64,000 bases of DNA from Gemmatimonadota bacterium (GCA_039586815.1 JBDHJR010000007.1:1844-65843); one strand, 5' to 3'. Counted from the first letter of the stretch, positions 6,708 through 39,050 are shown. The notes: a model not told the origin generated them from the sequence alone. Made by a program: numbers and translations.

Positions 6708-6710
6708 GGG

Positions 6711-11742: not shown

Positions 11743-13271
11743 ACCGACGGTATCTGGCTTTAGCCGTTCTGGCGGTCTGGCTCGCAGCGGTCGGATGGAT
11801 GGTGCGGCGCGAGTACTTCCGCCCGCGCGCCGACATGTTGGCAGACGCGGCGTTGAGGATACCACCCGGCGCCGCCTACTACCGGCTCGACCTCGGAGGG
11901 CAGCAGATCGGCTTCGCTTCGAGTCTGGTGGATACGCTGCCGGACACGCTGCGCCTGCAAGACCTCATGATCCTCGAGATACCGGCCCTCGGGACGGTAC
12001 AGCGCATCGAGGCGCGCACCGACGCCAAGCTCAGCCGCTCGCTGCGGCTGCGCACCTTCGAGGCCACGATTCGCGGTGCCGACGTCCGGTTCGGTGTGCG
12101 GGGAGAGGTGTCCGGCGACTCCCTGCTCACGCTCGAGATCGAGAGCGCGGACAGCCGGCAGCGCCAGGAGATCGATCTGGACGAGCCGATCGTGCTGCCG
12201 GGCCTGATGCCTCTCAGCCTGGTGTTCGGCGGCGAGCTCGAGGTGGGGAGGAGCTATGCCGTGCGCCTGTTCGATCCCCTGCAGCTCGGGCAGCGGGACG
12301 TAAACGTCACGGTGCTCGCCGAGTCCACGCTGTTCGTTCCCGACTCGGCGCGCTTCGAGCCGGAGACCGACTTGTGGGTGGCGGCGCGCTGGGACACGCT
12401 CCGCGCGTGGAAGGTACTGCAGGAGACCCGCGGCCTGGAGCTGGAGGCGTGGATCGACGAGATGGGCCAGATCGTGCAGGCCACCACCCCGGTCGGGTTC
12501 ACCATGGAGCGCACCGCGTTCGAGATCGCGTTCGAGAACTTCCGCCGCCACCAGGGCGTGCGCCTCACGAGTGACGTGGGTGCCGACCTCATACGCCAGA
12601 CCGCCATCGCCTCCGACGTACGACTGTCGCAGGAGGCGCTGGGCGAGTTGAGAGTGCGTCTGGGCGGGGTGGACCTCGAGGGATTCGAGCTGAGCGGCGG
12701 CCGCCAGGAGCTACGAGGCGACATGCTGGTCGTGCGGCGCGAGGCCGACTCGCTACTCGACGCCGGCTACCGCATTCCCGCCGACGACCCCGACCTGGCA
12801 CCGTTCCTGGAAGCGGAGCCGCTGGTTCACAGCGACGATCCGCGCATCGAGGCTCAGGCGCGCCAGATCGTGGGACGCACGCGCAACCCGAGGCGGGCGG
12901 TGGAGCGGCTGGTGGATTGGGTGTACGACGAGATAGACAAGCGCGTCACGGTGAGCGTGCCGAGCGCCCTCGAGGTACTCGAAACGCGCCGCGGCGACTG
13001 CAACGAGCACACCGTCCTCTTCGTGGCCCTTGCCCGCGCGGTGGGTATACCGGCGCGCACCGCTGCCGGCCTCGTGCACGTGGACGGCTCGTTCTACTAC
13101 CATGCCTGGCCCGAGGTCTACCTCAACGGCTGGGTCGCGGTGGATCCCACGTTCGGCCAGTTCCCCGCCGACGCCTCGCATCTGCGCTTCACCATCGGCG
13201 GGCTCGCACAGCAGGCGGAACTCATCCGGCTCATCGGCCGGCTCACTCTCGACGTGGTGGATACGGAATGA
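11739..13271 (+). CDS. Transglutaminase-like (cysteine protease fold) domain protein, N-terminal membrane anchor
   Basis: N-terminal TM helix (YLALAVLAVWLAAVGWMV). C-terminal core …RRGDCNEHTVLFVALARAVGIPARTAAGLVHVDGSFYYHAWPEVYLNGWVAVDPT… carries the Cys-His-Asp transglutaminase-core motif. The GTG start overlaps the upstream stop. Confidence 0.8.
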   Translation: MNRRYLALAVLAVWLAAVGWMVRREYFRPRADMLADAALRIPPGAAYYRLDLGGQQIGFASSLVDTLPDTLRLQDLMILEIPALGTVQRIEARTDAKLSRSLRLRTFEATIRGADVRFGVRGEVSGDSLLTLEIESADSRQRQEIDLDEPIVLPGLMPLSLVFGGELEVGRSYAVRLFDPLQLGQRDVNVTVLAESTLFVPDSARFEPETDLWVAARWDTLRAWKVLQETRGLELEAWIDEMGQIVQATTPVGFTMERTAFEIAFENFRRHQGVRLTSDVGADLIRQTAIASDVRLSQEALGELRVRLGGVDLEGFELSGGRQELRGDMLVVRREADSLLDAGYRIPADDPDLAPFLEAEPLVHSDDPRIEAQARQIVGRTRNPRRAVERLVDWVYDEIDKRVTVSVPSALEVLETRRGDCNEHTVLFVALARAVGIPARTAAGLVHVDGSFYYHAWPEVYLNGWVAVDPTFGQFPADASHLRFTIGGLAQQAELIRLIGRLTLDVVDTE

Positions 13272-14026
13272 TCCGGCTGGAGGAACTCACAAAGACCTAC
13301 GGCAAGTTCGTGGCGGTCGACTCGATCGACCTGCACGTACCCCGCGGACAGCTGTTCGGCTTCCTCGGACCGAACGGCGCCGGCAAGACGACCACGCTGC
13401 GGATGATCGCCGGGATCCTCCGGCCCACCCACGGGCGCATCTGGCTCGGGGGTGACGACCTCATTGCCGATCCCATGACGGCCAAGGCTAGGCTCGGCTT
13501 CATACCCGACCGGCCGTTCGTCTACGAGAAGCTCACCGGTGCCGAATTCCTCCGCTTCGTAGCGGGGCTGTACGGCGACGACGGTGCCGCCGTGGAGCGC
13601 CGCGTGGACGAGCTGTTCGAGCTTTTCGAGCTCTCGGTGTGGAAGAACGAGCTGGTGGAGTCGTACAGCCACGGGATGCGGCAGAAGCTCATAATCTCGA
13701 GCGCACTGATCCACCGCCCCGAGTGCATCGTGGTGGACGAGCCGATGGTGGGCCTCGACCCCAAGGGTGCCCGCCTGCTGAAGGACATCTTCCGCGCCTT
13801 CGTCGAGAAGGGCGGGACCGTGCTGATGAGCACGCATACTCTCGAGGTGGCACAGGCGATGTGCGACCGCATCGCAATCATCCAGGAGGGACGGATCGTT
13901 GCGCGCGGCACCATCGACGAGCTGCGCAAGCAGACCGCGGCCGGCGACGCGTCACTGGAGGAGCTGTTCCTCAGGCTGACGGGCGGCGCGGCCATCCAGG
14001 AGCTGGCGGCTCTCCTCAGCGATTGA
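13268..14026 (+). CDS. ABC transporter ATP-binding protein
   Basis: MIRLEELTKTYGKFVAVDSIDLHVPRGQLFGFLGPNGAGKTTTLRMI…YSHGMRQKLIISSALIH…IVVDEPMVGLDP… has Walker A, signature and Walker B motifs. The ATG at 13268 overlaps the upstream TGA, so the long track ORF starting at 12917 is rejected. Confidence 0.9.
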   Translation: MIRLEELTKTYGKFVAVDSIDLHVPRGQLFGFLGPNGAGKTTTLRMIAGILRPTHGRIWLGGDDLIADPMTAKARLGFIPDRPFVYEKLTGAEFLRFVAGLYGDDGAAVERRVDELFELFELSVWKNELVESYSHGMRQKLIISSALIHRPECIVVDEPMVGLDPKGARLLKDIFRAFVEKGGTVLMSTHTLEVAQAMCDRIAIIQEGRIVARGTIDELRKQTAAGDASLEELFLRLTGGAAIQELAALLSD

Positions 14027-18736: not shown

Positions 18737-19849
18737 TCACTCGGGCACTGGGGACGATTCCCTGAGCTCCACGAAACCGTAGACGACTATTCTGTCGGGT
18801 CCTGACTGGTTGGTCACGAAGATCAGGTGCTGCAGCTCGAACTGCGGGTGCACGTACTGCCTGAAGTAATCGAGATGCCGGTAGTCCACTGCCACCTTCG
18901 CCGGGAGGGACATGAAACCGGGGCCACGGTAGGGGCCTCCGAAGAACGTGAGGAGCTTCCCCTCGCGGTCGAAGATCTGCACGTTCTCGAACCGCGCATC
19001 CACCACATAGACCCGCCCCTCCTCATCCACGGCCACGCCCTTGGGTAGCGCGAACTGCCCGAAGGCAACGCCACGGCTGCCAATCGTCCGGAGGTGGTGG
19101 CCTTCCGTTGAATACACCTCCACCTTGGCCCCCAACTGGTCGCTGACGTACACTTCGTCGCGCCACACGTAGAGGTTTGCGGGCCTCGCAAGTCCGCCCG
19201 GCTCACGCGGCTCGAGGCCGTTGGGGAAAGAGAACAGGTGTTCACCCGAGGCCCTGTCGAACACGCGCACACCCCGTACCGCGTAGTCCGAGATCCAGAT
19301 CCGGTCCTCGGTCACGAACACATCCCCAGGCTGCACCACGCTGTCGGCACCCACGCTCCCCCGGTACGTGCCGGTGCTGTCCAGCACGAGGACCTCGCCC
19401 AGGCCGAGGTCGGCAACGTAGAGATTCCCCGCGTCATCCATGTGGCAGTTCACAGGTCGTCCGATGCGCTCCGGACCCCCAGCATACACGTGTTCCAGAG
19501 TCCGCTCCTCGAGATCGAGCACCTCGAGCCCGGGAAGCCCCAGGTCGCACACGTAGATCTTGCCGCCGCCGACCGCGAGCCCGTATGGACGCACTATGAG
19601 GCTCACCGAATCGACCTCGCTCTCGCCCACCAGCCACGACAGGAACGAACGCGACTGCGCTTCCCGTAGATCCGAGGCCGACGTGATACGCGTGAGGAAC
19701 TGAATGCGAGCGGTATCGGGAGGTGGCGGGAATACCACCAGAGAGTCCGAGGGGACCGACGATGCCTGCTTCCCAGCGCACCCGCCGAGATTCAACCCGA
19801 CGGCTACCAGCACTGCGCCCTGGCGCAACCGGCGTGCAACAGACTTCAT
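18737..19849 (-). CDS. NHL-repeat / six-bladed beta-propeller lipoprotein
   Basis: Lipobox …VAVGLNLGGC|AGK. Repeated blades of the type G.F..P.G.AVD..G.IYV.D (…RPYGLAVGGGKIYVCDLG…, …RPVNCHMDDAGNLYVADLG…, …LPKGVAVDEEGRVYVVDAR…). Confidence 0.7.
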   Translation of the reverse strand: MKSVARRLRQGAVLVAVGLNLGGCAGKQASSVPSDSLVVFPPPPDTARIQFLTRITSASDLREAQSRSFLSWLVGESEVDSVSLIVRPYGLAVGGGKIYVCDLGLPGLEVLDLEERTLEHVYAGGPERIGRPVNCHMDDAGNLYVADLGLGEVLVLDSTGTYRGSVGADSVVQPGDVFVTEDRIWISDYAVRGVRVFDRASGEHLFSFPNGLEPREPGGLARPANLYVWRDEVYVSDQLGAKVEVYSTEGHHLRTIGSRGVAFGQFALPKGVAVDEEGRVYVVDARFENVQIFDREGKLLTFFGGPYRGPGFMSLPAKVAVDYRHLDYFRQYVHPQFELQHLIFVTNQSGPDRIVVYGFVELRESSPVPE

Positions 19850-19950: not shown

Positions 19951-20556
19951 CTACTTCGTGTGGCAATCTCCACAGAGGGAAGCCGGAGCCAAGCGCAGGA
20001 ACATGACCTGGCCCTCGCCGTGCGGATTGTGGCAGCTCGCGCACTCGACGTCACCACCCCGTAGCGGGAGAGACGTCGGGGTGCCGGCCACCAGGTCGCC
20101 GTCCGTCGAAGCCGCAGCTGCGTAGTCGATCGACACCGGATGGTCGTCACCCAGATTGGTGCCGATGTTCGCGCTGGCGTTCACCAGGCCCTGCGCATCC
20201 GCCCCGCCCCCGAAGTTGTCGACGTTCAGCGTCCCGTCATGGCATCCCAGGCACAGGCGCGATGACTCGTTCACCGTACTCGGATTGGTCTCCATCGTGA
20301 GGCTGCTATAGAGCACGGAATACGTGGCCGCGGCATTCACGGAGTGGTTCCACAAAGGACTGATAGTCGTGGCCGGGCTGTGTGGCACGTGACATGATTC
20401 GCACAGACCGGCAGCAAGCCCGTTGTAGTTAGCTGACGAGGGGTTGCCAGCCACGAAGTCGTGCGGACTGTTGTCGACCTGACTCCAAGCCTGACCCATC
20501 GCCGCGGCTGCAGGCATCAGCAGCAGCGCCGCGACAGTAAAGAGCGTCTTCTTCAT
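19951..20556 (-). CDS. Tetraheme c-type cytochrome ('doubled CXXCH' Geobacter-type family)
   Basis: Signal peptide MKKTLFTVAALLLMPAAAAMGQA. Four CxxCH motifs (CESCH, CLGCH, CASCH, CGDCH) with the pattern SPHDF…CxxCHxPH typical of paired-CXXCH cytochromes. Confidence 0.85.
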   Translation of the reverse strand: MKKTLFTVAALLLMPAAAAMGQAWSQVDNSPHDFVAGNPSSANYNGLAAGLCESCHVPHSPATTISPLWNHSVNAAATYSVLYSSLTMETNPSTVNESSRLCLGCHDGTLNVDNFGGGADAQGLVNASANIGTNLGDDHPVSIDYAAAASTDGDLVAGTPTSLPLRGGDVECASCHNPHGEGQVMFLRLAPASLCGDCHTK

Positions 20557-20811: not shown

Positions 20812-21762
20812 TTGTCCCAAAGCATGGACTTCTCCGACTCGAAGCCCGCACGCCGGCAATCGCCGCGTCACAGGGAGATCGATCGAGTGCATAGCGGGGC
20901 GCAAAGCAGGATGGGTTGGGCGATGGTGGCAACCGCGGTCGCGTCGATCGTCGGGTGCAGTACGGCTGCGTCCGTATTCCTCGACTTGCCCGAGCAACGC
21001 GAACAACCTGCGGTGCCCATTGCCGCCACTACGAGTCTGGCCGCCCCGCCGCAAGACACCGTCAGGCCACCGATCGAATCCACCCTGAGCGCAGACAGCG
21101 CCCTAGCATTGCTCCCGAAGGACGCCGCCGGCGACGTCGATTGGGTTGCGGCACTCCGCTCGGGCGTCGTGCGACCGAGACGCGGCCTCCCTGGAGTGGC
21201 TTCCCCCAGTGGCAACTCCGACTTCGGCTATGATTTCCGACTCCGGGGCCCGAACGAGATGTTCGACGCTCTCTTCCCACACTCCTCCCACGTGGAGTGG
21301 ATGGCCTGCGACGCGTGCCACCCGTCGATCTTCCCGTATCGCGGGGCCCCGATCTCGATGAAGGAAATCAACGAGGGTGACTCCTGCGGCCGCTGTCACG
21401 GTACGGTCGCGTTCCCCGCCTCCACTTGCTCGCGATGCCACCCGGCCATGCCGGCACCCTCACCGCGCCAGACGCAGCTGAGCCACGACATTCTGCCGGC
21501 GCGTGCCGGCAGCGACAGCACCAGCCCGTCGGGCGAGTATCCCAGGGCCCGGTTCGCGCACTGGGTTCACCGCGTCCGCTACCAGTGCTCGGCGTGCCAC
21601 CCGCAGCTCTTCGACATGCGTGCCGGCTCCGACACTCTCACAATGAGCGCCATGCAGAAGGGAGAGGCATGCGGCGCGTGTCACGACGGAGACGTCGCCT
21701 TCTCGCTTCTGAACTGCACCACCTGTCACGCGACGCCTGCCGGTGGAGAGGAGGGGCCCTGA
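20812..21762 (+). CDS. Hexaheme cytochrome c with two c7-type triheme domains
   Basis: Six CxxCH motifs (CDACH, CGRCH, CSRCH / CSACH, CGACH, CTTCH) in two repeats of the c7 pattern F.H..H….C..CH…………C..CH……….C..CH. The start is uncertain: TTG 20812, ATG 20824, or ATG 20911. The last would give a lipoprotein-like signal MGWAMVATAVASIVGC. Confidence 0.8.
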   Translation: MSQSMDFSDSKPARRQSPRHREIDRVHSGAQSRMGWAMVATAVASIVGCSTAASVFLDLPEQREQPAVPIAATTSLAAPPQDTVRPPIESTLSADSALALLPKDAAGDVDWVAALRSGVVRPRRGLPGVASPSGNSDFGYDFRLRGPNEMFDALFPHSSHVEWMACDACHPSIFPYRGAPISMKEINEGDSCGRCHGTVAFPASTCSRCHPAMPAPSPRQTQLSHDILPARAGSDSTSPSGEYPRARFAHWVHRVRYQCSACHPQLFDMRAGSDTLTMSAMQKGEACGACHDGDVAFSLLNCTTCHATPAGGEEGP

Positions 21763-23696
21763 CCCGGCTGGGGACGCTGGCTGCGCTTCTCGCGCTGGCC
21801 CTGCCCCTTCAGCCAGCGCGCGGGCAGAGCCCGGTCTCGCTGACGTCGGGTCAGGGGCAGATCGGCGTCGAGTTCCTGGGGCTGTGGTCCGATTACGACG
21901 CACGACCCGGGATTCGGCAGGCCAACTTCAGGGAGTGGGCCGAGGCTCGCGTCCGTGCCACCATCGTCGATCCCCGCCTCCTCAGCTTGCGGCTGCGCAT
22001 CAGACCCGAATGGCAGCAGTCCAACTGGGGCGGCGAGACTGACGTGCCTGATCAGACGGCTGCACGGCTCGGCTGGAACGGCTCGCTGACGCTGCTGGAG
22101 GGGCGCCCGGTCTCGCTCACCATGACCACGCTGCGCTCGACCGCCACAACCCGCAGCCAGATCGGCTCCGAGACCGGAGTCACGCGCTCGGAGTTCACCT
22201 CGTCCTTGCGTGCACGTCTGCGTTATCTCCCGATGCGGATCACCTTTCGGCGCTTCACGCAGGACCACGACGTACGTTCCGGTCCGCTGCCGGTGCGCCA
22301 GTGGTTCACCAGCAGCCGTCTGCGGCTGAGCGCGAAGAACTCCAAGACGCAGCTGTCGCTGGAGCGACACTGGTACGACGACCGCCTGCAGCAGCCAAAC
22401 GATTTCACGGAGACACACGGGTGGTTCCATCACATGTTCCGCTGGGGCAAGGGCAGCAGCATCGCGTCAGACGTGGACTTCGTGGATCGAGTTGGTGGCT
22501 ACCCCTACCGCAACTTCTCCTGGTCGGAGAGGGTGCACCTGCAGCACACACGCTCCGTCAACTCCGAGTACGAGTTCCGCACGGGCTCGACACGGGCGGG
22601 CTTGGGATCGAGCAGCTTCCGCTCGCTCGGCGCCGCGGTGTCGTTTCCCATCATGGCCGCCCTGAGAGCCCGGATCGAGGGATCTTCCCTTCGGACGCGG
22701 TTCGACATCGGCCACGAGAGCATTCTGCGCGTTGGGCCCCGGCTGGAGTTCGCCACCCGACTGCCGCTCCGTTCGCGGCTCAGTGTCGGGACTGCGCTCA
22801 TGTACGAGCGGGCCTCACAGCAGCCAGTGGCCGACCAGTGGGTCCCGGTCGCCGGTGAGCGACATATAGTGGACGTCCAGCGCAGCTTCTTCCTCGATCG
22901 GGCCGCGGTCGACCTCGCCTCGATTCGCGTGCTTCGCAACGATCGAACACTCGTTTACCAGTCGGCTTTCGACTATGAACTCGTCGAATCGGGGCCATTC
23001 ATTCAGGTAGTGGTACTCCCGGCCGGCCTGATTCAGGTCGGTGACACGCTCCTCGTGGACTACCGGCACCACGTCGTCCCACAGGCAAGTAAGGAGCAGT
23101 TGGTCGCCACCTTGAACGTGACCATCTCCAGCGGACCTGTCCTGGCGTACTCTCACTCTCGATTGACCGGCGGACTGACGGCGGACGACCCACCTCCACT
23201 GCCGGTGCCGACAGGTAGTGCAGTCACCAGTCTGCGTGACCTCGACGAGATCGTCTTCGGACTGCGCGTGCGCGGCAGAATCCCGATCGGCCAGGGTGAT
23301 GCCGGTATCGAGCGGTCCATCCGCAGGGCGGACGCCTACCGTATCGAGACGCTCGAACTGAGGGCGATCTGGAGCTTCACCGTCGGCCCGGGCATTCTCG
23401 GTTCGGTGCAGGGAGCCTTGGCACGGACGGATGGGAGCGACGGTCCTTCACGCACGCTCTCCGGCAGCGCCTCCGTTGTGTGGTGGGCGCACCGCTCGCT
23501 CTCACTCCGCGCAACGCTGGGTTCATGGCAGCGCAGTGTCGAAGACAGCGACGCATCCTTCCTTGGTGGCGGAGTGGGTGCCGAGTGGCGGCGCGGCAAG
23601 TTCCTAGCCGCGTTGCGCTACGATCACTCGCAGTGGGACGAGTTCAGCCCCCGACTGGACGACCGGGTTTCCGCGATTCTCGTGCGCGAGTTCTGA
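21669..23696 (+). CDS. Putative outer-membrane beta-barrel protein (porin component of a porin-cytochrome module)
   Basis: Signal-like …LGTLAALLALALPLQPARGQ. The long body has alternating-hydrophobicity, Arg/Ser/Thr/Gly-rich segments with no TM helices or Cys, and it ends …RVSAILVREF (C-terminal aromatic, OMP hallmark). The start is uncertain: the ATG at 21669 overlaps the upstream gene by 94 nt, and a non-ATG start near 21760 is possible. Confidence 0.55.
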   Translation: MRRVSRRRRRLLASELHHLSRDACRWRGGALTRLGTLAALLALALPLQPARGQSPVSLTSGQGQIGVEFLGLWSDYDARPGIRQANFREWAEARVRATIVDPRLLSLRLRIRPEWQQSNWGGETDVPDQTAARLGWNGSLTLLEGRPVSLTMTTLRSTATTRSQIGSETGVTRSEFTSSLRARLRYLPMRITFRRFTQDHDVRSGPLPVRQWFTSSRLRLSAKNSKTQLSLERHWYDDRLQQPNDFTETHGWFHHMFRWGKGSSIASDVDFVDRVGGYPYRNFSWSERVHLQHTRSVNSEYEFRTGSTRAGLGSSSFRSLGAAVSFPIMAALRARIEGSSLRTRFDIGHESILRVGPRLEFATRLPLRSRLSVGTALMYERASQQPVADQWVPVAGERHIVDVQRSFFLDRAAVDLASIRVLRNDRTLVYQSAFDYELVESGPFIQVVVLPAGLIQVGDTLLVDYRHHVVPQASKEQLVATLNVTISSGPVLAYSHSRLTGGLTADDPPPLPVPTGSAVTSLRDLDEIVFGLRVRGRIPIGQGDAGIERSIRRADAYRIETLELRAIWSFTVGPGILGSVQGALARTDGSDGPSRTLSGSASVVWWAHRSLSLRATLGSWQRSVEDSDASFLGGGVGAEWRRGKFLAALRYDHSQWDEFSPRLDDRVSAILVREF

Positions 23697-24517: not shown

Positions 24518-26383
24518 CTAGAACCTCCCCCCGTCACCGTGTCGGTGACAGCCGTAGCAGTTGTCCTTCGTCACCATCGCCGTGCGGTTGTGGCACGTGT
24601 TGCACCACGCTCCGGCATCGCTCACCGGATCGGCACTGCTCGCATTGGTGACCACCCCATAGTCGAAAGTCTGCAGCCAGTTGCCCCCCTGCTTCGCATA
24701 GTAACCGTCCAGCGGCACACCGGTCCTGCTCTTGACCGTGTCCACCAGCATGAAGTGCGACGTCGTATCGCGACTCACATCGACGTTGGGATGTGCGCGG
24801 TGGCAGACTGAGCAGGTCAAGATGGAGCCGGGCCCCCACCCGTCATCACCCTCCAGGTCGAGTCCGGCGGCTGACTGGCTCCGACCACCCATGCCGTCAC
24901 TGGCCCACGTGCTCTGAATGTTCACGATCGTCGGCGCCGCGTGGTCCTGGACACCGGACGGGAAGGTGCCGTCGTGGCAGTCGAGACAGAACTCGCTCAA
25001 CGTATCCGCATAGCTCGTGTAGGCGTAGTAATACGAGTCGGTACCCACGACGTGACCGTCCGCCACCGTCGGATCTGGATCCAGAATGAACGGCAGTGCA
25101 GTCGTGGCCGTGTGCGGATCATGGCAGTCGACACACTCGATCTTGGCACCGCTCCGCGCCTGCGCCGTTTGCTGGACGTCGTGACGGTCATTCAGGTTCG
25201 GGTTGCTGTTGAGGCCGGTGGCCTGCTGCACCCAATTGATCGCCCGGCTGAAGGCGGAGTTCAGGTCTATGCTGGATGGGCCACCGGCGTCGTGGCAATT
25301 GAGGCAGAATCCTTCCTCCTGCTCCGCGTTGGCGGGCGCCGTGGCCGGCACGCCGGCCGGAGCGAGCAGCTTGAGCTTGTCCGAGCCGTGGCCGCTGGCA
25401 TGGCAGCCGAAGTCACCGTCGCCGTAACACGACACGGACGGCGACGTGGAGTTGTGAGACGCCAGGGCCCACGCGGCACCGTCGATCTGCGGGACAGCCA
25501 CGTTGTCGGTGAACGGCGTCGTATCACCGTTGGCGCCGTCGGCGTCGTGGCAAGCCAGGCAGAACGAGTTCAGCGAGACCGCTTCGGGGGCTGACGCGTT
25601 GGGATCTCCCGTCAGCACGATCGCCGCAGCCGTATTGCCGGGGTCGTCCACATTCCACAGGCGCACGCTGCCCTGCTGGTGCTCGCTCTGGTCGTGACAA
25701 ACCACGCAGTCCAGCGTATCGGCGGGTGTGGCCGCGTGGTGACTGAGCCGATCGAATTCCGCGACGACCGCGCGGCGGCTGCCCTTTACGGACGCGTGAC
25801 AGTCGGTACAGGCTCCTCCGGCCGCTGCGAACCCGCTGGCATGGGTGTGACAGGCTGGGCAGTCCTTCTGGTTGTTGTGTGCCGGCATGCCGCCGCTCTG
25901 GCGGTGGTAGTCGGTGGCCGTGTGGCATACCTCGCACACGCCGTCGTAGGTGCCGTCGCCGTCGGCGAAGTCGGTCGTGTCCATGAACACTACCGCTCGA
26001 GCTCCGCCGGTATAGCGGTTGTCGAGCGCAACGGGGATCAGCGCCAGGTTGGTGCCCGTTTCGCCCTCGTGGTCGTGACAGTCCCGGCAGCTTGTCGAGT
26101 CGGGTGGCGTATGCTTGCCGCCCGCGTGAACGGCCACGCCCTTAGGCACCGTCTCCCCATTGTACGTGGCAGGCGCACCGTCCGCGTGGCACGACATGCA
26201 GAGATCCTCGGCGCGCTGGTAGTCCATCAGCTGCGCCTCGGCAGCACCGTGCAGATTGTGGCAATAGTCACAGGTGTCGTGTTTCACCTGTGCGCGGGCC
26301 GTTTCGGCGCTCCCACCCAGGACGCCCAGCACGACCACGACAGCCGTGACGACCTGCGCTGCCGCGAACCGAGCGCAGCTCAT
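24518..26383 (-). CDS. Large multiheme c-type cytochrome (14 CxxCH plus one CX7CH candidate)
   Basis: Signal …VVVVLGVLGGSAETARAQ. Motifs: CDYCH, CMSCH, CRDCH, CEVCH, CPACH, CTDCH, CVVCH, CLACH, CLNCH, CVDCH, CLDCH, CSVCH, CNTCH, CYGCH, plus CYGDGDFGCH. The long heme-poor spacers suggest a surface-exposed or extracellular cytochrome. Confidence 0.85.
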   Translation of the reverse strand: MSCARFAAAQVVTAVVVVLGVLGGSAETARAQVKHDTCDYCHNLHGAAEAQLMDYQRAEDLCMSCHADGAPATYNGETVPKGVAVHAGGKHTPPDSTSCRDCHDHEGETGTNLALIPVALDNRYTGGARAVVFMDTTDFADGDGTYDGVCEVCHTATDYHRQSGGMPAHNNQKDCPACHTHASGFAAAGGACTDCHASVKGSRRAVVAEFDRLSHHAATPADTLDCVVCHDQSEHQQGSVRLWNVDDPGNTAAAIVLTGDPNASAPEAVSLNSFCLACHDADGANGDTTPFTDNVAVPQIDGAAWALASHNSTSPSVSCYGDGDFGCHASGHGSDKLKLLAPAGVPATAPANAEQEEGFCLNCHDAGGPSSIDLNSAFSRAINWVQQATGLNSNPNLNDRHDVQQTAQARSGAKIECVDCHDPHTATTALPFILDPDPTVADGHVVGTDSYYYAYTSYADTLSEFCLDCHDGTFPSGVQDHAAPTIVNIQSTWASDGMGGRSQSAAGLDLEGDDGWGPGSILTCSVCHRAHPNVDVSRDTTSHFMLVDTVKSRTGVPLDGYYAKQGGNWLQTFDYGVVTNASSADPVSDAGAWCNTCHNRTAMVTKDNCYGCHRHGDGGRF

Positions 26384-27360
26384 GGGACCCGCTCTATGCT
26401 GGCGGTTCCGTTGCTTACGACGATGAGTCGTCCGTCCTCGCCCAGCACCACGTCGAGGGGCACGCGCAGCCTGCCTCCGTCGGCAACGTGGGCGCCCACG
26501 TGTGGCAGCGGCTGGCCGGTGGCGCGGTCGAACACGAGAACCTGCCCCAGCAGCGCGTCAGCCACGTAGATCCTGCCTTCGCCGTCGACGGCGATGCCTT
26601 GCGGCCGGGAGAAGCCGTCCGAGCACCCGAGCATGCCGCAGGTACCATCGCCCGAGATCTCGGCCAGGAAGTTGCCGTCGTAGTCAAAGATCTTGACGGC
26701 CGCCGCGACACCCGGCTCGCCGTAATCGCTGACGAGCACCTCCCGGCGGTTCTCGTCCACGGCGATACCCGTGGGCGCGCGGAGCCCCGCCCGGTCCGGG
26801 CTGGGACCGGCCAGCGTCCCTCGAGCCTCGCCATCGAGAGTGAATGTCTTCACCTCACGTGTCCCGCCGGCGACGACGAACACGAGGCCCATCCGATGAT
26901 CAATGGCGAGGTCACTGGGATACGGGGCCGCACCGCGCCCGAAGGAGTACTTCCAGGTCCCGTCGGGACCGAACACGTCCACGGTACCTGCGTCGGCGTT
27001 TCCCACAAACACCCGGCCGCCCCACAAGCCCACCCCCAGGGGCTTTCCGTCAACCTGAAGTGCCTGATCCGGCTGGAGGGTCGCCGCGTTGACTCGGAGC
27101 ACAACTTGAGATCGCGAGTCCGACACGAGCAACCCGCCGCTCGGGGTCAGGACCATTCGAACGGGGGACTGCAGCCGGAGGAGTGAGGTATCGAACGGCC
27201 GCGAGAAGTTGGGCTCGACCGGGTCTTCCGGTCCGGCCAGTGGCTCCTCGTGCTGGCCGACGGTTGGACGGTCGACGCACGCCGCCGCGAGCAGGGCTCC
27301 GCCCAGCACGGCGAGTTTGACCGCAGAGTTCCGTCGATACAGGCTACGCATCGTGATCAA
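26380..27360 (-). CDS. NHL-repeat / beta-propeller lipoprotein
   Basis: Lipobox …LGGALLAAAC|VD. Blades include …PVRMVLTPSGGLLVSDSR…, …PSDLAIDHRMGLVFVVAG…, …PTGIAVDENRREVLVSDYG…, …PQGIAVDGEGRIYVADAL…, …PLDVVLGEDGRLIVVSNG…. Its stop overlaps the start of the 14-heme gene (26380-26383). Confidence 0.7.
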   Translation of the reverse strand: MITMRSLYRRNSAVKLAVLGGALLAAACVDRPTVGQHEEPLAGPEDPVEPNFSRPFDTSLLRLQSPVRMVLTPSGGLLVSDSRSQVVLRVNAATLQPDQALQVDGKPLGVGLWGGRVFVGNADAGTVDVFGPDGTWKYSFGRGAAPYPSDLAIDHRMGLVFVVAGGTREVKTFTLDGEARGTLAGPSPDRAGLRAPTGIAVDENRREVLVSDYGEPGVAAAVKIFDYDGNFLAEISGDGTCGMLGCSDGFSRPQGIAVDGEGRIYVADALLGQVLVFDRATGQPLPHVGAHVADGGRLRVPLDVVLGEDGRLIVVSNGTASIERVP

Positions 27361-27519: not shown

Positions 27520-28056
27520 TTATACGTGTGCGATGGTCTTCGCGCCGCATTCCGCGCAGAACTTCGCGCCGGCCGGCAACTCCTTGCCGCACTCTGAGCA
27601 GAACGACCCACTTTCAGAGACCGCCGCGGAGAGCTTGCCGCCGCAGTTGGAACAGAACGTCGCGTCCACCTCGGGCCGCGGTCCGCAAGACGGGCACACG
27701 GCGCCGCGCCCGGCCGCCGCTCGCTTGATCAACTCCTCGGCCACGTCCTCCGCAGCCATGTCCAGCTCCTCCGCCTCCTCGGCCTCGATCGCCGCGATCG
27801 CCACCTTGGAGTACTTCGCCTTGAGCGCTGCGTAATCATCATCGGACAGCTTGCCCGTGGCGCGGTCGAACTCGATCTCCTTCAAGGCCAGCAACGCCTG
27901 GACCTTGGCCGAGTCGGACTCTTCGATGTCGGTGAAGTCGATCTCGTCGGCGGGGGATGTCGCCTGCTCGTCGGCCCCTCGGGCCGAGAACAGGGGCTCG
28001 AGCACGAGCGCCACCGCGACGAAGGCTACGATGACACCCGCTATCAACTCCAGCAT
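27520..28056 (-). CDS. Membrane-anchored double zinc-ribbon protein (possible CcmI-like accessory factor)
   Basis: N-terminal TM helix MLELIAGVIVAFVAVALVLEPLF, which resembles the CcmI N-terminus. An acidic coiled region follows, then two CxxC…CxxC ribbons (CPSCG…CSNCG, CSECG…CAECG). It lies 6 nt downstream of the ccmH-like gene. Confidence 0.55.
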   Translation of the reverse strand: MLELIAGVIVAFVAVALVLEPLFSARGADEQATSPADEIDFTDIEESDSAKVQALLALKEIEFDRATGKLSDDDYAALKAKYSKVAIAAIEAEEAEELDMAAEDVAEELIKRAAAGRGAVCPSCGPRPEVDATFCSNCGGKLSAAVSESGSFCSECGKELPAGAKFCAECGAKTIAHV

Positions 28057-28062
28057 GAATCG

Positions 28063-28644
28063 CTACTCCAGCTTTTCCAGCTCGGACTCGAGCTTGGCTC
28101 GTTCGTCAAGACTGAGGTCGGTCGGCAGGTCCGCCGCACCGGCCAGCTCCACCCCGTCCGCCGAGCGACGAGAGAAGACCCAGAGGAGCGCGGATCCGAC
28201 CGCTATTATCGCCGCACCAGGAACGAAGTATGCCGCGAGATTGAACCCTTCCTTCTTCGGCGCCATCAGCACGGTCTCGCCGTGCTTCGCCACGAACGCA
28301 TCGAGTATCTCCTCACCGGTCATCCCCTCCTCCACCATGCCCACCAGCTCCCGGTGGATCGCGGGAGAGGTTCCGCAGGTGAAGTCGGTAGTGCGGCACG
28401 TGTAAACATCCAGATTGCACCCGCAGGTGCAGCGCATCTGGCTCTCGATGCCGACGATGAAGGGATCGTTCTCGTAGTCGGTGATGCGGCCGCGTGGGCG
28501 ACCGGCGAGATCCGGTCGCAGTAGCTGCCCCACCGCTGTGTCACCCTGCGCCTGCGGATCGCCCTGCAGCAGCGCACCTGGCAAGAGGGCCGCTCCCGAC
28601 AGCTTCAGGGCATCGCGCCGCGAGTAGCGTCGCTCAACTAGCAC
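28063..28644 (-). CDS. CcmH/NrfF-like cytochrome c maturation protein with an atypical Cys motif
   Basis: Tat-like leader RRYSRRDALKLSGAALL. Core …QMRCTCGCNLDVYTCRTTDFTCGTSPAIHRELVGMVEEGMTGEEILDAFVAKHGETVLMAPKKEG… is followed by a TM helix, which is the CcmH topology. The canonical LRCxxC box is replaced by RC-T-C-G-C. Its start overlaps the ccmF stop. Confidence 0.5.
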   Translation of the reverse strand: MLVERRYSRRDALKLSGAALLPGALLQGDPQAQGDTAVGQLLRPDLAGRPRGRITDYENDPFIVGIESQMRCTCGCNLDVYTCRTTDFTCGTSPAIHRELVGMVEEGMTGEEILDAFVAKHGETVLMAPKKEGFNLAAYFVPGAAIIAVGSALLWVFSRRSADGVELAGAADLPTDLSLDERAKLESELEKLE

Positions 28645-30670
28645 CGGCTGAGCTCCCCTCCAGCGTCGCCGCGTAGCCCGCCATGGCGCGGCGTCGATCC
28701 GCTCCGGTGCTGCTTCCGGGCCACAGGGTCACCACACCTCCGGCCACCAACACGATGCCGCCGAACCAGAGCCACCACACCAGCGGATTGAGCGTGAAGC
28801 GGTACACCGCCTCCTCGGTGCCGGCCACCGATCCGGCGTACACGATGTAGATGTCCTCGCGCAGGTCGCTGCGGATTCCCGCCTCGGTGGACGGCTCGAA
28901 GGTCGCCCGTCCGAAGGAATCCACGTGCTGCCGCTTTTCGCTCTTCATGACGCCCACCCGCTCGCCGTCTCGAGCGACTTCGACGCTCGCCGCGGTCGTG
29001 AAGCGGTTGAGTTCCTCGTACTGCGAGACGCCCAGGTGGGTGAACGTATAGGTGTAGCCCCAGGGGGACCGCAGATCCGCCGACTGTCCGGGCTTCAGGG
29101 AGGCCTCGATGTCCGTCTTGAACGCCTGCCCAGCGAACGCCACGAAGTACAGCACGATGCCGAGATGAACGACATAGCCGCCGTAGCGCCGCCGATTGCG
29201 ACCCACCAGGCGCGCAAAGGCCTGCGGATAGCTCTCACCGTGCAGCCGGTGCCGTGCCCCGACGCCGCGCACGAACTCCTGCGTGACGGTTCCGACCACG
29301 AACGCGGCGAGGGCGAACGTCATTATGGCGTACAGGTTCCGCATGCCCAGTGCCAGCAGCAACACCGCCACGATGGCGCCGGCGCTCATCGGCACGGCAA
29401 ACTGGCGGTTCAGGTGTCCCGGGCTCGCCCGACGCCACGCGATGAGCGGCCCGATGCCGGTGAGCGCCAGCAGCCCCAAACCGATCGGGATGTTCACCTG
29501 GTTGAAGAACGGCGGACCCACTGTGACCTGGGTACCGCGGATCAGCTCGGAGATCATGGGGAACATGGTGCCCCAGAGCACGGAGAACGCGATCCCCACC
29601 AGCAGCAGGTTGTTGAACAGGAAGCTGGCTTCGCGGGAGACCATGCTCTCCAGGTGCGACTCCGCCTCGAGCATCGGAAGCCGCTTCCAAATCACCCATG
29701 CCGTCGCCACGATGATGAAGATCAGGTAGAACCCGAAGTACATCCCGATCGGCGACTGCGAGAAGGAGTGGACGCTGGAGATGATCCCCGAGCGCGTGAT
29801 GAACGTGCCGAAGATCGACAGCAGGAACGACAGCGAGATGAGCACCATGTTCCACTTCTTCAGCATCCCGCGCTTCTCCTGGATCATCACCGAGTGGAGG
29901 AACGCGGTCATCGTGAGCCACGGCAGGAAGCTGGCGTTCTCAACCGGATCCCACGCCCAGTAGCCGCCCCAGCCCAGCTCGACGTACGCCCACCACATCC
30001 CGAGCGTGATGCCGATGGACAGGAACAGCCACGAAATGATGGTCCACTTCCGAATGGCGTGCAGCCATCCCGTATCGAGCCGCTTGGAGAAGAGCGCGGC
30101 CATCGCGAACGCGAATGGGATCGTGATGCTGATGTACCCCAGGTACAGCATCGGTGGATGGATCACCATCCCGGGGTTCTGCAGCTGCGGGTTGAGTCCG
30201 TTGCCGTCCGCCGGCGTGAACGCCAGCCGCTCGAACGGATTGGCCGCGAACAGCGTCACCACCACGAAGAAGAAGACGATGGATGCCGTCACCGCTCCGG
30301 CGTACGGCATCAGGTCCTCGTAACGCCGGCCCGTGAGCCACTGCGCCAGGGCTCCGAAGATGGCGAGCACCACCGCCCAGAAGAGCAGGCTGCCGGCCTG
30401 CCCACCGTAGAAGGCGGACAGCGTGTACACCAGCGGGAGATTGCGGCTGGTGTAGCTCGCCACGTAGGCAACGTTGAAGTCGTGCTTGACGAGCGCGACG
30501 ATGAGCGCAAAGGACGCCACCACCAGGACGCCGGCCAGGGCGTAGGTGGCGCGCCGCGCACTGCGAACGAGATCCGGGCGCTGCTTGGCACCGCCCACGA
30601 AACCCACAATGGTGGCCCAGGCGCTGAGCAGCAGTGCCAACCACAGCGCTAGCTGTCCGAGAATCGTCAT
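28634..30670 (-). CDS. ccmF: Cytochrome c heme lyase / maturation protein CcmF
   Basis: MTILGQLALWLALLLSAWATIVG… with ~15 TM helices. It has the WGGYWAWDPVENASFLPW tryptophan-rich (WWD) heme-handling motif and a conserved CcmF C-terminal domain. I prefer the ATG at 30670 (4 nt after the ccmE stop) over the track start at 30718. Confidence 0.9.
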   Translation of the reverse strand: MTILGQLALWLALLLSAWATIVGFVGGAKQRPDLVRSARRATYALAGVLVVASFALIVALVKHDFNVAYVASYTSRNLPLVYTLSAFYGGQAGSLLFWAVVLAIFGALAQWLTGRRYEDLMPYAGAVTASIVFFFVVVTLFAANPFERLAFTPADGNGLNPQLQNPGMVIHPPMLYLGYISITIPFAFAMAALFSKRLDTGWLHAIRKWTIISWLFLSIGITLGMWWAYVELGWGGYWAWDPVENASFLPWLTMTAFLHSVMIQEKRGMLKKWNMVLISLSFLLSIFGTFITRSGIISSVHSFSQSPIGMYFGFYLIFIIVATAWVIWKRLPMLEAESHLESMVSREASFLFNNLLLVGIAFSVLWGTMFPMISELIRGTQVTVGPPFFNQVNIPIGLGLLALTGIGPLIAWRRASPGHLNRQFAVPMSAGAIVAVLLLALGMRNLYAIMTFALAAFVVGTVTQEFVRGVGARHRLHGESYPQAFARLVGRNRRRYGGYVVHLGIVLYFVAFAGQAFKTDIEASLKPGQSADLRSPWGYTYTFTHLGVSQYEELNRFTTAASVEVARDGERVGVMKSEKRQHVDSFGRATFEPSTEAGIRSDLREDIYIVYAGSVAGTEEAVYRFTLNPLVWWLWFGGIVLVAGGVVTLWPGSSTGADRRRAMAGYAATLEGSSAGAS

Positions 30671-30674
30671 GTGA

Positions 30675-31079
30675 TCAGGCGGAAGGTTCCGATTCGTACC
30701 GCGAGCCGCACTTGGCAAGCAGACTGGTTGCGTGGAACGTCCCGTCAGGCGCCAGTCGTCCCTCGACCACCACGTCCACGTCGTCGGTGAACGTGTCGGG
30801 CGCGATTCCTCGATAGACCACCGGGTACGTCTGCTCGCCGTCCGTCACCTCGAAGTTGATCGTCTGCGAGGCGACGTCGCGCTCGATGGTGCCGTGCACC
30901 ACCCGCGCTCCCATCTTGACACCGACGTCGTGGAAGGTGGGATCGGCCTGGACCCTGTCGGCCAGCTCCGACGGGGTGAGGAAGTACACCCCCGTCTCCT
31001 TGATGCCCGAGGTCATGAGGAAGCCAACCGTCGTGAGGACCAGCCCGGCTCCGATGATGAACTTAGTGCGTGGTTTCAT
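30675..31079 (-). CDS. ccmE: Heme chaperone CcmE, Cys-variant (CxxxY instead of HxxxY)
   Basis: N-terminal anchor KFIIGAGLVLTTVGFLM, then an OB-fold core …VKMGARVVHGTIERD…INFEVTDGEQTYPVVYRGIAPDTFTDDVDVVVEGRLAPDGTFHATSLLAKCGSRYE. The canonical LAKHDxxY heme-binding His is a Cys here. Confidence 0.85.
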   Translation of the reverse strand: MKPRTKFIIGAGLVLTTVGFLMTSGIKETGVYFLTPSELADRVQADPTFHDVGVKMGARVVHGTIERDVASQTINFEVTDGEQTYPVVYRGIAPDTFTDDVDVVVEGRLAPDGTFHATSLLAKCGSRYESEPSA

Positions 31080-36839: not shown

Positions 36840-37352
36840 TTACGTGAAGACGATCTGGCCCCCTGCTGCCATCTCGTAGAACTCACCCACCGTGATGATG
36901 TCCGTGATGTGCGGTACGAAGTCGTCCTTACTGAGGTCGAACATGTCCACCGACGCCTTGCAGGCGTACATGCCCGCTCCCGTGTCGGCGATCATCTCGA
37001 CGAACTCGGGGATCGGCGGAATGTCCAGCTCCTCCATCTTCTTCTGCATCATCTTGGTGACCATGGCGGACATTCCGGGGAAGCCGCCCAGCCAGGTCGC
37101 CATGTGGAGGCCGGGGTTCCCCACGGTCGCCACCTTGATCCGCTCTTGCTTCTTCTTCGTGATGGCGTCCATCCCGAAGAAGGTGAAGAACACGTTCGCC
37201 TCGATCCCTTCCATCCGGGCGCCGTTGGCCATGATGAGGCCGGGGTACACACCCTCGAGCGAGCCCTTCGAGATGATGATCGAGACCTTCTTGATCGTCT
37301 CCGGCACGGCCACGTCCGCCGTGGCCTGCTCGGGCATTGTTGCATTCGTCAT
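36840..37352 (-). CDS. DsrE/DsrF-like sulfur-relay family protein
   Basis: …KVSIIISKGSLEGVYPGLIMANGARMEGIEANVFFTFFGMDAI… and …GAGMYACKASVDMFDL… carry the conserved DsrE-type Cys. I chose the ATG at 37352; the upstream extension is Arg/Gly-rich with no support. Confidence 0.75.
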   Translation of the reverse strand: MTNATMPEQATADVAVPETIKKVSIIISKGSLEGVYPGLIMANGARMEGIEANVFFTFFGMDAITKKKQERIKVATVGNPGLHMATWLGGFPGMSAMVTKMMQKKMEELDIPPIPEFVEMIADTGAGMYACKASVDMFDLSKDDFVPHITDIITVGEFYEMAAGGQIVFT

Positions 37353-37381
37353 GGTCGCGTTCCCTCTCTTTGACTCGCCGA

Positions 37382-37696
37382 TCAGATGCAGCCGCGAGGC
37401 TTGGGAATCCCGCCGATCTTGGCGGCCAGCTTCGCGGGTCCCTTGGGGAAGAGCTTGTACAACTCCTTGATCGGCACGCCCGACTCCTTGCCCAGCGCGC
37501 GGATGGAGGGGGCGTTGCCCGTCTCCAGGTACTGGTTGCGCATGAACTCCACGACCTGCCAATGCCGGTCGGTCATCTCGGCGATGCCGGAGTCACGCGC
37601 GATTTCCTGCCCGACGTCCCTGCTCCACTGCTCCGGCTTCTGCATGAAGCCCTCTGCGTCTACTTCGATCGTCAGCCCTGCAATCGTTGCCGTCAT
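37382..37696 (-). CDS. TusE/DsrC/DsvC-family sulfur carrier (single C-terminal Cys, TusE-like)
   Basis: 104 aa. …EVDAEGFMQKPEQWSRDVGQEIA…EMTDRHWQVVEFMRNQYLETGNAPSIRAL…KELYKLFPKGPAKLAAKIGGIPKPRGCI. The C-terminal arm has the penultimate Cys but not the second Cys found 10 residues upstream in DsrC. Confidence 0.8.
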   Translation of the reverse strand: MTATIAGLTIEVDAEGFMQKPEQWSRDVGQEIARDSGIAEMTDRHWQVVEFMRNQYLETGNAPSIRALGKESGVPIKELYKLFPKGPAKLAAKIGGIPKPRGCI

Positions 37697-37715
37697 GGTG
37701 TTTCCCCCCTATGGC

Positions 37716-39050
37716 TCAAGCGACTCTCGCGGAGTCGTCCTCAGTTACCATCGAGTTGCGCGCCCCTCCCTGCACCGCGTGACGCTCCGGCGGGGGAAGG
37801 TCAACCCGTTGCTTGCCGCGCAGCGACATGCGCGCGGGCACACCGGGCATGTTCCGCCCGGGAAGCAGCATGTGCCAGTACACCCAGCGGAACCACATCT
37901 TGCCGATGTGGTTCATGCGCGTCTCCTTCAGCAGGGAGAGCGGGCCTACACCGGCGAACGGGAACTTCCCGGGCAGCGGCTGGATGTCGTAGTTGAAGTC
38001 GATGAGCACGGCCTTGTTGAAGCCGGTCTCGATGAAGCAGTTGGCGTGGCCGTCGAACCCCTCCTCGAGCGGCTCCGACGCCAGGTACCGCCGGATGTTC
38101 TCCTCCAGCACCTCGGCCTCGAAGTGCGCCACCGATCCCGCCTTGGAGGTCGGGAGGTTGGTGGCGTCTCCCAGCGCAAAGATGTTCTCCTTCACCTTCG
38201 CCTGGAGCGTGGCCTGGTCGGTGAAGATGAAGTTCATGTCGTCGCCGAGGCCGGGTGAGCGGCTGACGAAGTCAGCGCCCATGTGGAGCGGGATGCTTAC
38301 CAGCAAGTCGAAGCCCTCGACCCGCTCGTCCCACGACTTCAGCTCGCCCTTCTCCCCATCGACCTCACCGGCGTTGAAATCGGTGATGAGCTCGATTCCC
38401 TTCTTCTCCAGCAGATCCCCCAGCGCCTTGGCGGCTAGCGGCCGGGTGAACGCTCCATCCAGCGGCGTGGCCAGCGCGATCTCGACCTTGTCGCGCATGC
38501 CCTTCTCCTGGAAGTACCAGTCGGCCAGGAACACGAACTCCAGTGGCGCGATGGGGCACTTGATGGGCATCTCCACGATGTTCACGACCAGACGCCCGCC
38601 CTCCCACCGCTCGAGCGCCTGGTGCAGCTTGGTTGCGCCATCGAGTGTGTAGAACTCGTGCATCGTGTCGCCCCACCCGGCTCCGGTCAGCCCTTCCGTC
38701 TCCTGGGGGGCAATGCCCGTGCCGCTGGCCACGATGAGTACGTCGTAGTCGAGCGTCTTGCCGCCCTCCAGGTAGACGCGGTCCTCCTCGGGCTCGACTC
38801 TATCGATGGCCGCCTGGACGTACTCCACACCCTTCCCGACCTGGGGGCGGCGCGGCTTGACCGTGTCTTCCGGTGTGTAGATCCCGAAGGGAACGAACAG
38901 CAGACCGGGCTGGTAGACGTGCTGATTGTCCTGATCGACAATCGCAATCTGCAGCTCGCCGGACCTGTAGTCGGACCCGTACAGTTTGCGCAAACGGTTG
39001 GCCATGATGGTGCCGGCCGTACCTGCGCCCAGGATCACGATGCGCTTCAT
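37716..39050 (-). CDS. sqr: Sulfide:quinone oxidoreductase-like flavoprotein (FAD-dependent pyridine nucleotide-disulfide oxidoreductase)
   Basis: MKRIVILGAGTAGTIMANRL (FAD GxGxxG motif), …QHVYQPGLLFVPFG…, …YDVLIVASG…, …IFALGDATNLPTSKAGSVAHFEA…. Its position next to DsrE and TusE/DsrC-like genes supports a sulfide-oxidation role. I chose the ATG at 39050. Confidence 0.75.
   Translation of the reverse strand: MKRIVILGAGTAGTIMANRLRKLYGSDYRSGELQIAIVDQDNQHVYQPGLLFVPFGIYTPEDTVKPRRPQVGKGVEYVQAAIDRVEPEEDRVYLEGGKTLDYDVLIVASGTGIAPQETEGLTGAGWGDTMHEFYTLDGATKLHQALERWEGGRLVVNIVEMPIKCPIAPLEFVFLADWYFQEKGMRDKVEIALATPLDGAFTRPLAAKALGDLLEKKGIELITDFNAGEVDGEKGELKSWDERVEGFDLLVSIPLHMGADFVSRSPGLGDDMNFIFTDQATLQAKVKENIFALGDATNLPTSKAGSVAHFEAEVLEENIRRYLASEPLEEGFDGHANCFIETGFNKAVLIDFNYDIQPLPGKFPFAGVGPLSLLKETRMNHIGKMWFRWVYWHMLLPGRNMPGVPARMSLRGKQRVDLPPPERHAVQGGARNSMVTEDDSARVA

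Follow-up and report, generated by a model that had tools for sequence, protein, structure and literature searches.

A 64,000-nucleotide (nt) stretch of Gemmatimonadota DNA (GCA_039586815.1, JBDHJR010000007.1:1844-65843; here called the window) carries on its minus strand, running from 31079 to 27520, a densely packed cassette of ccmE, ccmF, a ccmH-like gene, and a gene for a zinc-ribbon protein. We conclude that, quite probably, this cassette supplies the haem-ligation half of the pathway by which the organism matures its c-type cytochromes in general (System I*), and does so in the form that is standard in Gemmatimonadota. It is an ordinary member of a widespread, under-described System I* subtype, in which a CcmE with Cys at the haem-binding position is accompanied by a CcmH with five conserved Cys and by a CcmI-like protein. 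The homologies, motifs, CcmH-like fold, conservation, gene order, and co-occurrence with Cys-type CcmE described below are shown by the analysis.

The ccmF ATG lies at 30670, after a 4-nt gap from the ccmE stop codon; ccmF and ccmH overlap by 11 nt, and 6 nt separate ccmH from the zinc-ribbon gene. Judging from these lengths, the four genes are translationally coupled. The C-terminal end of CcmE reads …HATSLLAKCGSRYESEPSA (also …LLAKCGSRYESEPSA), with LAKCGSRY at the place of LAKHDENY in Escherichia coli. Pairwise alignments to solved structures put Cys124 on E. coli His130 (8ce8_E, 1sr3_A) and also on the Cys of Desulfovibrio vulgaris CcmE (2kct). The pattern K-C-G-[SA]-[RK]-Y is present in 119 of the 120 closest CcmE homologues, and CcmE is thus predicted to carry haem on Cys124. 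CcmF matches Thermus thermophilus CcmF (6ZMQ) at 6.6e-97 and keeps all four His motifs (VIHPP, FLHSV, SVHSF, and VVHLG). The window therefore has the System I* features of a Cys in the CxxxY motif of CcmE and of a CcmF with WWD and four His.

The product of the third gene matches PF03918 at 54.8 bits (cut-off, 25) and finds no match in NCBIfam. The redox-active pair of the canonical LRCxxC motif is not present; the protein has RCTCGC instead, within MRCTCGCNLDVYTCRTTDFTC (MRCTCGC). Five Cys (C72, C74, C76, C83, and C90) are the sole invariant residues in an alignment of 114 diverse members; of these, C72 alone matches a canonical Cys of 2HL7, the first, with Gly75 in place of the second. Profile similarity to solved CcmH proteins is limited to helices 2-3. 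The AlphaFold2 model built on the 114-sequence alignment has a mean predicted local distance difference test score (pLDDT) of 86.9, with 10-residue blocks over residues 61-130 averaging 93-98, and it places a C-terminal membrane helix at residues 135-165. The top two Foldseek matches of this model, and the only meaningful ones, are Pseudomonas aeruginosa CcmH 2HL7 (prob 0.99, TM 0.65) and E. coli CcmH 2KW0 (prob 0.98). By its predicted fold, the window protein is a true CcmH. We infer that the five Cys take part in haem attachment, where they may form a periplasmic metal site or a thiol-disulfide relay that has gained an extra redox pair.

Several observations bear on the wider use of the five-Cys domain. 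The PCYCGC domain (PF13798) was considered as a relative of the five-Cys box and rejected: the letters CYCGC are shared, with no profile similarity, and published work shed no light on a link. Locus L096 encodes a CcmH-family protein (1223-1822) in which the five-Cys domain is tandemly duplicated, giving two CYCDC boxes; it adjoins a PKD protein that has a PCYCGC domain, and no ccmE or ccmF lies within the 8.8 kb examined. This setting suggests that cytochrome maturation is not the only use of the five-Cys domain. In the Calditrichota contig RFIL01000434 (locus L088), a gene at 5322-5930 encodes a fusion protein in which a double zinc ribbon and a membrane helix are joined to a CcmH-like domain (PF12773 + PF03918; CACGSC…CLC), a natural link of zinc ribbons to CcmH domains. 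This gene is found 2 kb downstream from the contig's ccm cassette, beside two YHS-domain genes and a DUF3347 gene.

The last gene of the cassette encodes a protein whose single membrane helix is N-terminal and whose double zinc ribbon (PF12773) contains four CxxC; it is publicly annotated as "zinc ribbon domain-containing" or "hypothetical." Its AlphaFold2 model consists of a helix at residues 2-24, a disordered acidic linker, a hairpin at 50-101 (10-residue blocks with pLDDT 82-95), and then the ribbons. The conserved core of the family is the membrane helix followed by …ALxALKEIEFDRATGKLSDEDY…; the hairpin is common to all members, including those without ribbons, and its motif is also found in loci L088, L091, L092, L094, and L095. 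Among the relatives, the number of ribbons is zero, one, or two. We take the core to resemble the cytoplasmic loop motif of Rhodobacter CcmI, and the N-terminal region is presumably akin to the "CcmI-1" region of Rhodobacter capsulatus CcmI (Sanders, Daldal and co-workers). Residues 7-99 match TIGR03142, the CcmI N-terminal domain, with an E value of 0.0019. The same model is matched at E ≤ 0.01 by 47 of the 78 family members from the collected loci (best, 3e-6), as the top family and in the same register (model positions ~6-86), and also by relatives from other lineages, including a 99-residue protein without a zinc ribbon. Neither a second membrane helix (in the structural model) nor a TPR domain (with Pfam) was found, and a profile search of the family against the PDB returned generic zinc ribbons only. 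The protein appears to be the CcmI counterpart, with ribbons, which are probably cytoplasmic, in place of the second membrane helix and TPR domain; because these two parts are lacking, we call it CcmI-like rather than CcmI.

An earlier reading of the window from its sequence alone (the sequence-only reading) had described much of this gene content. Its Cys for the haem-binding His of CcmE, its assignment of CcmE and CcmH families, the ccmF start 4 nt past ccmE, the CcmH-like gene with MRCTCGC and a twin-arginine (RR) leader, and the membrane-anchored double zinc-ribbon protein all held up in the alignments and family searches given here and in Table 1.

Two further protein types were seen beside related cassettes. 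In another large Gemmatimonadota clade, a protein of ~260 amino acids (aa) is encoded just upstream of the cassette (L046:5136-5921, with a counterpart in 24 other Gemmatimonadota loci, e.g., L036, L038-L041, L048, L053, L054, L062, L074, and L084). This protein combines a double zinc ribbon at the N-terminus with a single membrane helix and a periplasmic domain that is helical and TPR-like. Its gene occupies the place of ccmE before ccmF in 16 loci, and in many of these loci, genes for 8-haem and 18-haem cytochromes diverge from it. Possibly, CcmI is split in this clade and the ~260-aa protein represents its TPR half. Outside Gemmatimonadota, the cassette adjoins genes for proteins that begin with a signal peptide, have a periplasmic domain resembling a beta-sandwich and a single membrane helix, and end in a cytoplasmic segment bearing the same CcmI-like motif (…IAKLDVAHEAGELEESEY…) (L088:3746-4903, L092:1197-2546, L094:3580-4545, and L094:8062-9045); these may be apocytochrome-handling partners.

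The window corresponds, in reverse orientation, to bases 76991-140990 of a 142.8-kb JGI metagenome contig. It has a G+C content of 63-70%, and its close homologues that bear names all belong to Gemmatimonadota or Gemmatimonadales. A scan of species-representative genomes with the CcmH motif [VI][YF][TV]CRTTDF gave at least 594 matches, of which the best 80 are essentially all from Gemmatimonadota; together with four further loci, these 80 make up a set of 84 Gemmatimonadota loci. The order ccmE-ccmF-ccmH-zinc-ribbon gene is kept in about 60 of the 84, the zinc-ribbon gene is downstream of ccmH in 81, and the adjacent CcmE, where found, is always of the Cys type (62/62). The same motifs recur in thousands of homologues; hence, they are not due to chance. 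A pair of NHL-repeat and multihaem genes such as the one that follows the cassette in the window comes after it in no more than 8 of these 84 loci, all from close relatives, and in the distant complete genome CP070792 (54% CcmH identity), the cassette is kept amid unrelated neighbours.

The genes for the other half of the pathway lie apart. Neither ccmA, ccmB, ccmC, ccmD, ccmG, nor ccsBA is found among the main open reading frames (ORFs) of the window with Pfam and NCBIfam, and a six-frame phmmer search of the window with E. coli CcmC and the CcmA/B/C/D proteins of locus L094 as queries likewise found none of its targets; as a positive control, the E. coli CcmC query recovered the true CcmC of L094 at 3.9e-30. 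None of ccmABCD, ccmG, and ccsBA lies in the 8.8 kb of the source contig past the window end either. The ABC ATPase gene at 13268..14026 was considered as ccmA and rejected, since its product is DrrA/GldA-like; the three-gene group to which it belongs is likewise not CcmAB. All 84 Gemmatimonadota loci lack ccmB and ccmC within 8 kb of the cassette, indicating that separation from ccmABCD is the normal arrangement of the phylum. A single ccmABCD set presumably lies elsewhere in the genome.

The five-Cys CcmH reaches beyond this phylum. An exhaustive profile-free search found relatives of the CcmH-like protein in 1583 clusters (50% identity), with Calditrichota, Ca. Frackibacter, and Gemmatimonadota among the named groups, and CxCGC plus two further Cys are present in nearly all full-length sequences among the best 150 of these clusters. 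In L088 from Calditrichota (CcmE motif, CPSKY), CcmE, CcmF, and a CcmH with CTCGC…CEC are followed by a protein with a membrane helix, a CcmI-like motif, and one zinc ribbon. The same pattern recurs in L095 (CPSKY; one zinc ribbon), in L093 (CASRY; zinc ribbons present), and in L091 (CPSKY), where the CcmI-like protein has no zinc ribbon, while L094 (CPTKY) has a single operon, ccmE-F-H-I-x-A-B-C-D, for the entire pathway. Another CcmH class, used to scan metagenomes, yielded 80 loci: CcmE is of the Cys type in each of the 30 in which it was found, a CcmI-like gene is present in 74/80, and ccmB or ccmC shares the locus in 24/80, most commonly in the order E-F-H-I-B-C. Across Gemmatimonadota, Calditrichota, and several other lineages, a CcmE was found next to the five-Cys CcmH in 97 loci and is of the Cys type in every one.

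A bolder proposal would make the five-Cys CcmH the obligate evolutionary partner of Cys-type CcmE, supplying thiol chemistry that is missing in the canonical system, with the zinc-ribbon CcmI-like subunit coupling the synthase to a cytoplasmic partner. We regard this proposal as rather doubtful. Were it true, an internal second redox pair could make CcmG dispensable, or the five Cys could help to free haem from its thioether bond to the Cys of CcmE, and "System I* with CcmH*" would be a distinct, widespread third flavour of System I.

The more modest reading, of a general System I* ligation module, suggests the following course of events. CcmABC(D), encoded elsewhere, would load haem covalently onto Cys124 of CcmE. 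Holo-CcmE would pass the haem to the WWD site of CcmF, whose four retained His would ligate its own b-haem. In the periplasm, the five-Cys CcmH, anchored by its C-terminal membrane helix, would handle the CxxCH thiols of the incoming apocytochrome. The single-pass CcmI-type protein, with its cytoplasmic hairpin followed by zinc ribbons, would join CcmF and CcmH, so that the three presumably form a CcmF-CcmH-CcmI-like complex. The 14-haem cytochrome encoded downstream is probably a client of the cassette.

The sequence-only reading had gone further and proposed a specialised or additional haem-attachment machine for the large multihaem cytochromes nearby, beside a canonical system elsewhere in the genome. 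Its observations were accurate: there are no adjacent ccmABCD genes, the NHL and 14-haem genes continue downstream on the same strand, and the window exceeds the 130 haem sites that it had mentioned, with 133 CxxCH counted. Its variant System I, accompanied by a zinc-ribbon protein and a divergent CcmH-like one, also stands, but the specialised role finds no support. The cassette includes the general chaperone CcmE, is phylum-wide, and sits amid unrelated neighbours, with the NHL pair confined to a few relatives; in other lineages, the only ccm operon to be seen unites these four genes with ccmABC. No His-type CcmE was found in the 62 Gemmatimonadota loci or among the 120 closest homologues, and the neighbouring cytochromes carry ordinary CxxCH motifs. 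A dedicated machine is thus very unlikely, and the case is probably, in essence, that of the only, ordinary ccm locus with ccmABCD located elsewhere, an outcome that the sequence-only reading had itself named as contrary to its proposal. An even less credible option, which we consider extremely improbable, is a paralogous lyase of the NrfEFG type (CcmF/NrfE, CcmH/NrfF, and CcmI/NrfG-like) for a nonstandard motif such as CxxCK. CcmF scores alike on the NrfE model (TIGR03145, 423.7 bits) and on the general CcmF/NrfE model (424.6), and relatives of CcmH weakly match the NrfF model TIGR03147. However, both CcmF scores are far under their cut-offs (927.3 for NrfE and 569 for the general model), Nrf sets come without CcmE, the window has no CxxCK in its cytochromes and no NrfA near the cassette, and the cassette is distributed lineage-wide.

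A different question is the mechanism of CcmH alone. Its five Cys could hold an Fe-S or Zn centre that is inserted in the cytoplasm, the protein then being exported folded through the twin-arginine translocation (Tat) pathway and acting as a metalloprotein rather than as a thiol-disulfide relay. The leader, YSRRDALKLSGAALLPGALL, carries a twin-arginine motif of the SRRxALK type (SRRDALK in the window) shared by most of the 120 closest homologues, with several of the exceptions truncated N-terminally; the number of invariant Cys is odd, and, going by the secondary structure of the model, Cys at i, i+2, and i+4 would be expected to share one face of an extended strand. On the other hand, the Pfam TAT_signal model (PF10518) gives only 12 bits against a cut-off of 22.7 and reaches E ≤ 1 in just 7 of 60 members. 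Because the RR motif occurs in only 5 of 68 members of the other five-Cys CcmH classes, whose leaders look Sec-type, loading with a cofactor and folded export are not general to the five-Cys box. Tat export of the Gemmatimonadota-class CcmH is possible, going by the leader motif; a cytoplasmically inserted cofactor is unlikely both for the window protein and as the general explanation of the five Cys.

Some points weigh against the reading of a general System I* module that we prefer. The CcmI-like assignment of the window protein rests on sub-threshold matches (18.5 bits against a TIGR03142 cut-off of 29.3) and is to that extent putative; no member of the family scores above this curated cut-off. 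For the source genome, ccmABCD, ccmG, and ccdA/dsbD were not found in the window and the 8.8 kb past it, and they are likewise missing within 8 kb of the cassette in all 84 Gemmatimonadota loci, which leaves room for a second maturation system. In 24 of 52 full-length Gemmatimonadota loci, a gene with at least four haem sites lies within 8 kb of the cassette, in at least two layouts, which favours a specialised machine and hints that the recurrent linkage to multihaem genes is more than coincidence. The cassette tends to sit near its clients, yet this linkage is not evidence for a dedicated machine; the adjacent multihaem genes are probably clients of the cassette, not the reason for its presence.

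Table 1. Features of the ccm cassette and its downstream neighbours (window coordinates)
Feature	Position	Strand	Basis
ccmE, membrane-anchored haem chaperone, Cys type (System I*)	30675..31079	(-)	PF03100, E 4e-28
KCGSRY haem-binding motif of CcmE; Cys124 for canonical His, Tyr128 kept	30696..30713	(-)	Translation
ccmF, haem lyase / holocytochrome c synthase core, 678 aa	28634..30670	(-)	PF01578 + PF16327
WWD haem-handling motif of CcmF (WGGYWAWDPVENASFLPW)	29918..29971	(-)	Alignment to 6ZMQ + motif location
ccmH-like, five-Cys subfamily: leader, periplasmic three-helix domain, C-terminal membrane helix, short cytoplasmic tail	28063..28644	(-)	PF03918
N-terminal leader of CcmH with twin-arginine motif (YSRRDALKLSGAALLPGALLQG…)	28543..28644	(-)	Homologue alignment
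Five-Cys box CTCGCNLDVYTCRTTDFTC (C72, C74, C76, C83, C90), at place of canonical LRCxxC	28375..28431	(-)	Alignment
CcmI-like gene: N-terminal membrane helix, cytoplasmic helical hairpin with CcmI loop motif, two C-terminal zinc ribbons	27520..28056	(-)	PF12773
Conserved cytoplasmic hairpin …ALLALKEIEFDRATGKLSDDDYAALKAKY…	27754..27909	(-)	(Near-)invariant columns in two family alignments
Two zinc ribbons (CPSC…CSNC, CSEC…CAEC)	27547..27696	(-)	Pfam + family alignment
NHL-repeat protein gene; neighbour, outside maturation module	26380..27360	(-)	PF01436
14-haem c-type cytochrome gene; outside maturation module	24518..26383	(-)	14 CxxCH, multihaem Pfam families

By Pfam and NCBIfam, the main ORFs of the window are rich in cytochromes, with multihaem proteins, two Rieske/cytochrome b modules, and NrfD plus Fe-S subunits. 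The CxxCH motifs are spread over 14 ORFs, and, apart from one Cx4CH, the cytochromes have ordinary CxxCH only. The NHL gene starts 159 nt downstream of the zinc-ribbon gene. The stop codon of the zinc-ribbon gene is followed by a 9-bp hairpin whose stability is no better than that of shuffled sequence (z = -0.77), and a consensus scan found no terminator between the cassette and the NHL gene. The pairing of an NHL gene with a multihaem gene occurs twice in the window, at 19849..18737 with a 4-haem gene (20556..19951) and at the pair downstream of the cassette (27360..26380 with 26383..24518). Large ORFs without a family match lie among the cytochromes at 21426-23696 and 42274-44082.

A long same-strand respiratory run occupies 40820-63855 on the minus strand, with multihaem cytochromes of 4 to 21 haems. 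Two of these, at 43956-46886 (19 haems) and 47017-49059 (11 haems), are fused to cytochrome b561-type membrane domains. The run also includes two Rieske + cytochrome b pairs, NrfD and 4Fe-4S subunits, and two proteins with four haems each and repeats of the class-I cytochrome c domain (PF00034); past it, just outside the window, is a molybdopterin oxidoreductase gene. Between this run and the cassette, 6-8 kb upstream of ccmE, genes for DsrE-like and DsrC-like proteins and a pyridine nucleotide-disulfide oxidoreductase (36840-39152, minus strand) form a sulfur-relay-like cluster that is missing at the equivalent place in a close relative (L001).

Elsewhere in the window, six tandem paralogous genes (5270-6974, minus strand) encode proteins of 87-97 aa without a Pfam family, each combining a coiled-coil with a single membrane helix; a C-terminal box, …ELEERVDFTERVLTQQRE…LPPG, is conserved. 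The six genes sit directly upstream of a PspA/IM30 gene (4313-5089) and an AI-2E family transporter gene. A trio of genes for a transglutaminase-like protein, a DrrA/GldA-like ABC ATPase, and a PF16949 membrane protein spans 11739-15705, and the same trio recurs a few kilobases from the ccm cassette in distant Gemmatimonadota (L004:12486-16477; L054, L062, and L071).

For the window, the preferred reading makes the cassette the housekeeping equipment of a very cytochrome-rich organism. The labelling of the CcmI-like gene as a zinc-ribbon or hypothetical protein makes the maturation pathways of cytochrome-rich Gemmatimonadota and of soil bacteria look incomplete. Work on cytochrome c biogenesis is still asking what CcmH does and how haem is released from the covalent CcmE adduct, and a five-Cys CcmH that occurs with a Cys-type CcmE and a stripped-down CcmI offers a comparative system for asking which cysteines and which parts of CcmI are needed.

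System I*, with its Cys-type CcmE (CxxxY), was first described from archaea and Desulfovibrio as a system without CcmH (Allen et al. 2006; Goddard et al. 2010; reviewed in PMC3601427), and the role of the CcmE Cys was confirmed in Methanosarcina acetivorans (eLife 2022, PMC9084895). In Desulfovibrio, CcmI assists (PMC3601427). About one-third of bacteria with a Cys-type CcmE have CcmH, and most such CcmE carry CPSKY (Stevens et al. 2011, PMC3601427); therefore, absence of CcmH is not characteristic of System I*, and the description of the variant system as generally lacking CcmH, which the sequence-only reading had repeated, is outdated. The absence of CcmH that formed part of the 2006 definition does not apply to the window, where a PF03918 protein is present. 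The window shares with System I* the Cys-for-His CcmE in CxxxY and a conventional CcmF but differs in its CGSRY motif, its unlinked ccmABCD, and its phylum, as the taxa named in the 2011 review are delta-proteobacteria, chloroflexi, and firmicutes (PMC3601427). Unlike the systems of Desulfovibrio and archaea, which have no CcmH, it has a CcmH, of the five-Cys subfamily.

In the open-access literature, we found no description of a five-Cys CcmH, of an RR leader on CcmH, or of a zinc-ribbon CcmI, and a 2025 review still takes LRCxxC as the definition of CcmH. Thus, the five-Cys CcmH subfamily, its pairing with Cys-type CcmE, and the zinc-ribbon protein as a counterpart of CcmI appear to be undescribed. 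With canonical CcmH/NrfF (PF03918; 2HL7 and 2KW0), the window protein shares the three-helix periplasmic fold, an above-cut-off Pfam match, the helix 2-3 sequence …GxxxxEIxDxxVxxYGxxV…, the C-terminal membrane anchor, and the gene place after ccmF, whereas it has CxCGC-x6-C-x6-C with five invariant Cys instead of LRCxxC, together with an N-terminal extension that carries a conserved ITDYENDPFI box and the RR leader. The CcmI-like protein is without the second membrane helix and periplasmic TPR domain of CcmI/CycH, its relatives having one or two zinc ribbons or none, but it resembles CcmI/CycH in the N-terminal membrane helix, the cytoplasmic helical segment that follows, a motif of the L-x-E-[IV]-E-x-D-x-x-x-G-x-[IL]-x-x-x-[DE] type, and a gene position directly after ccmH.

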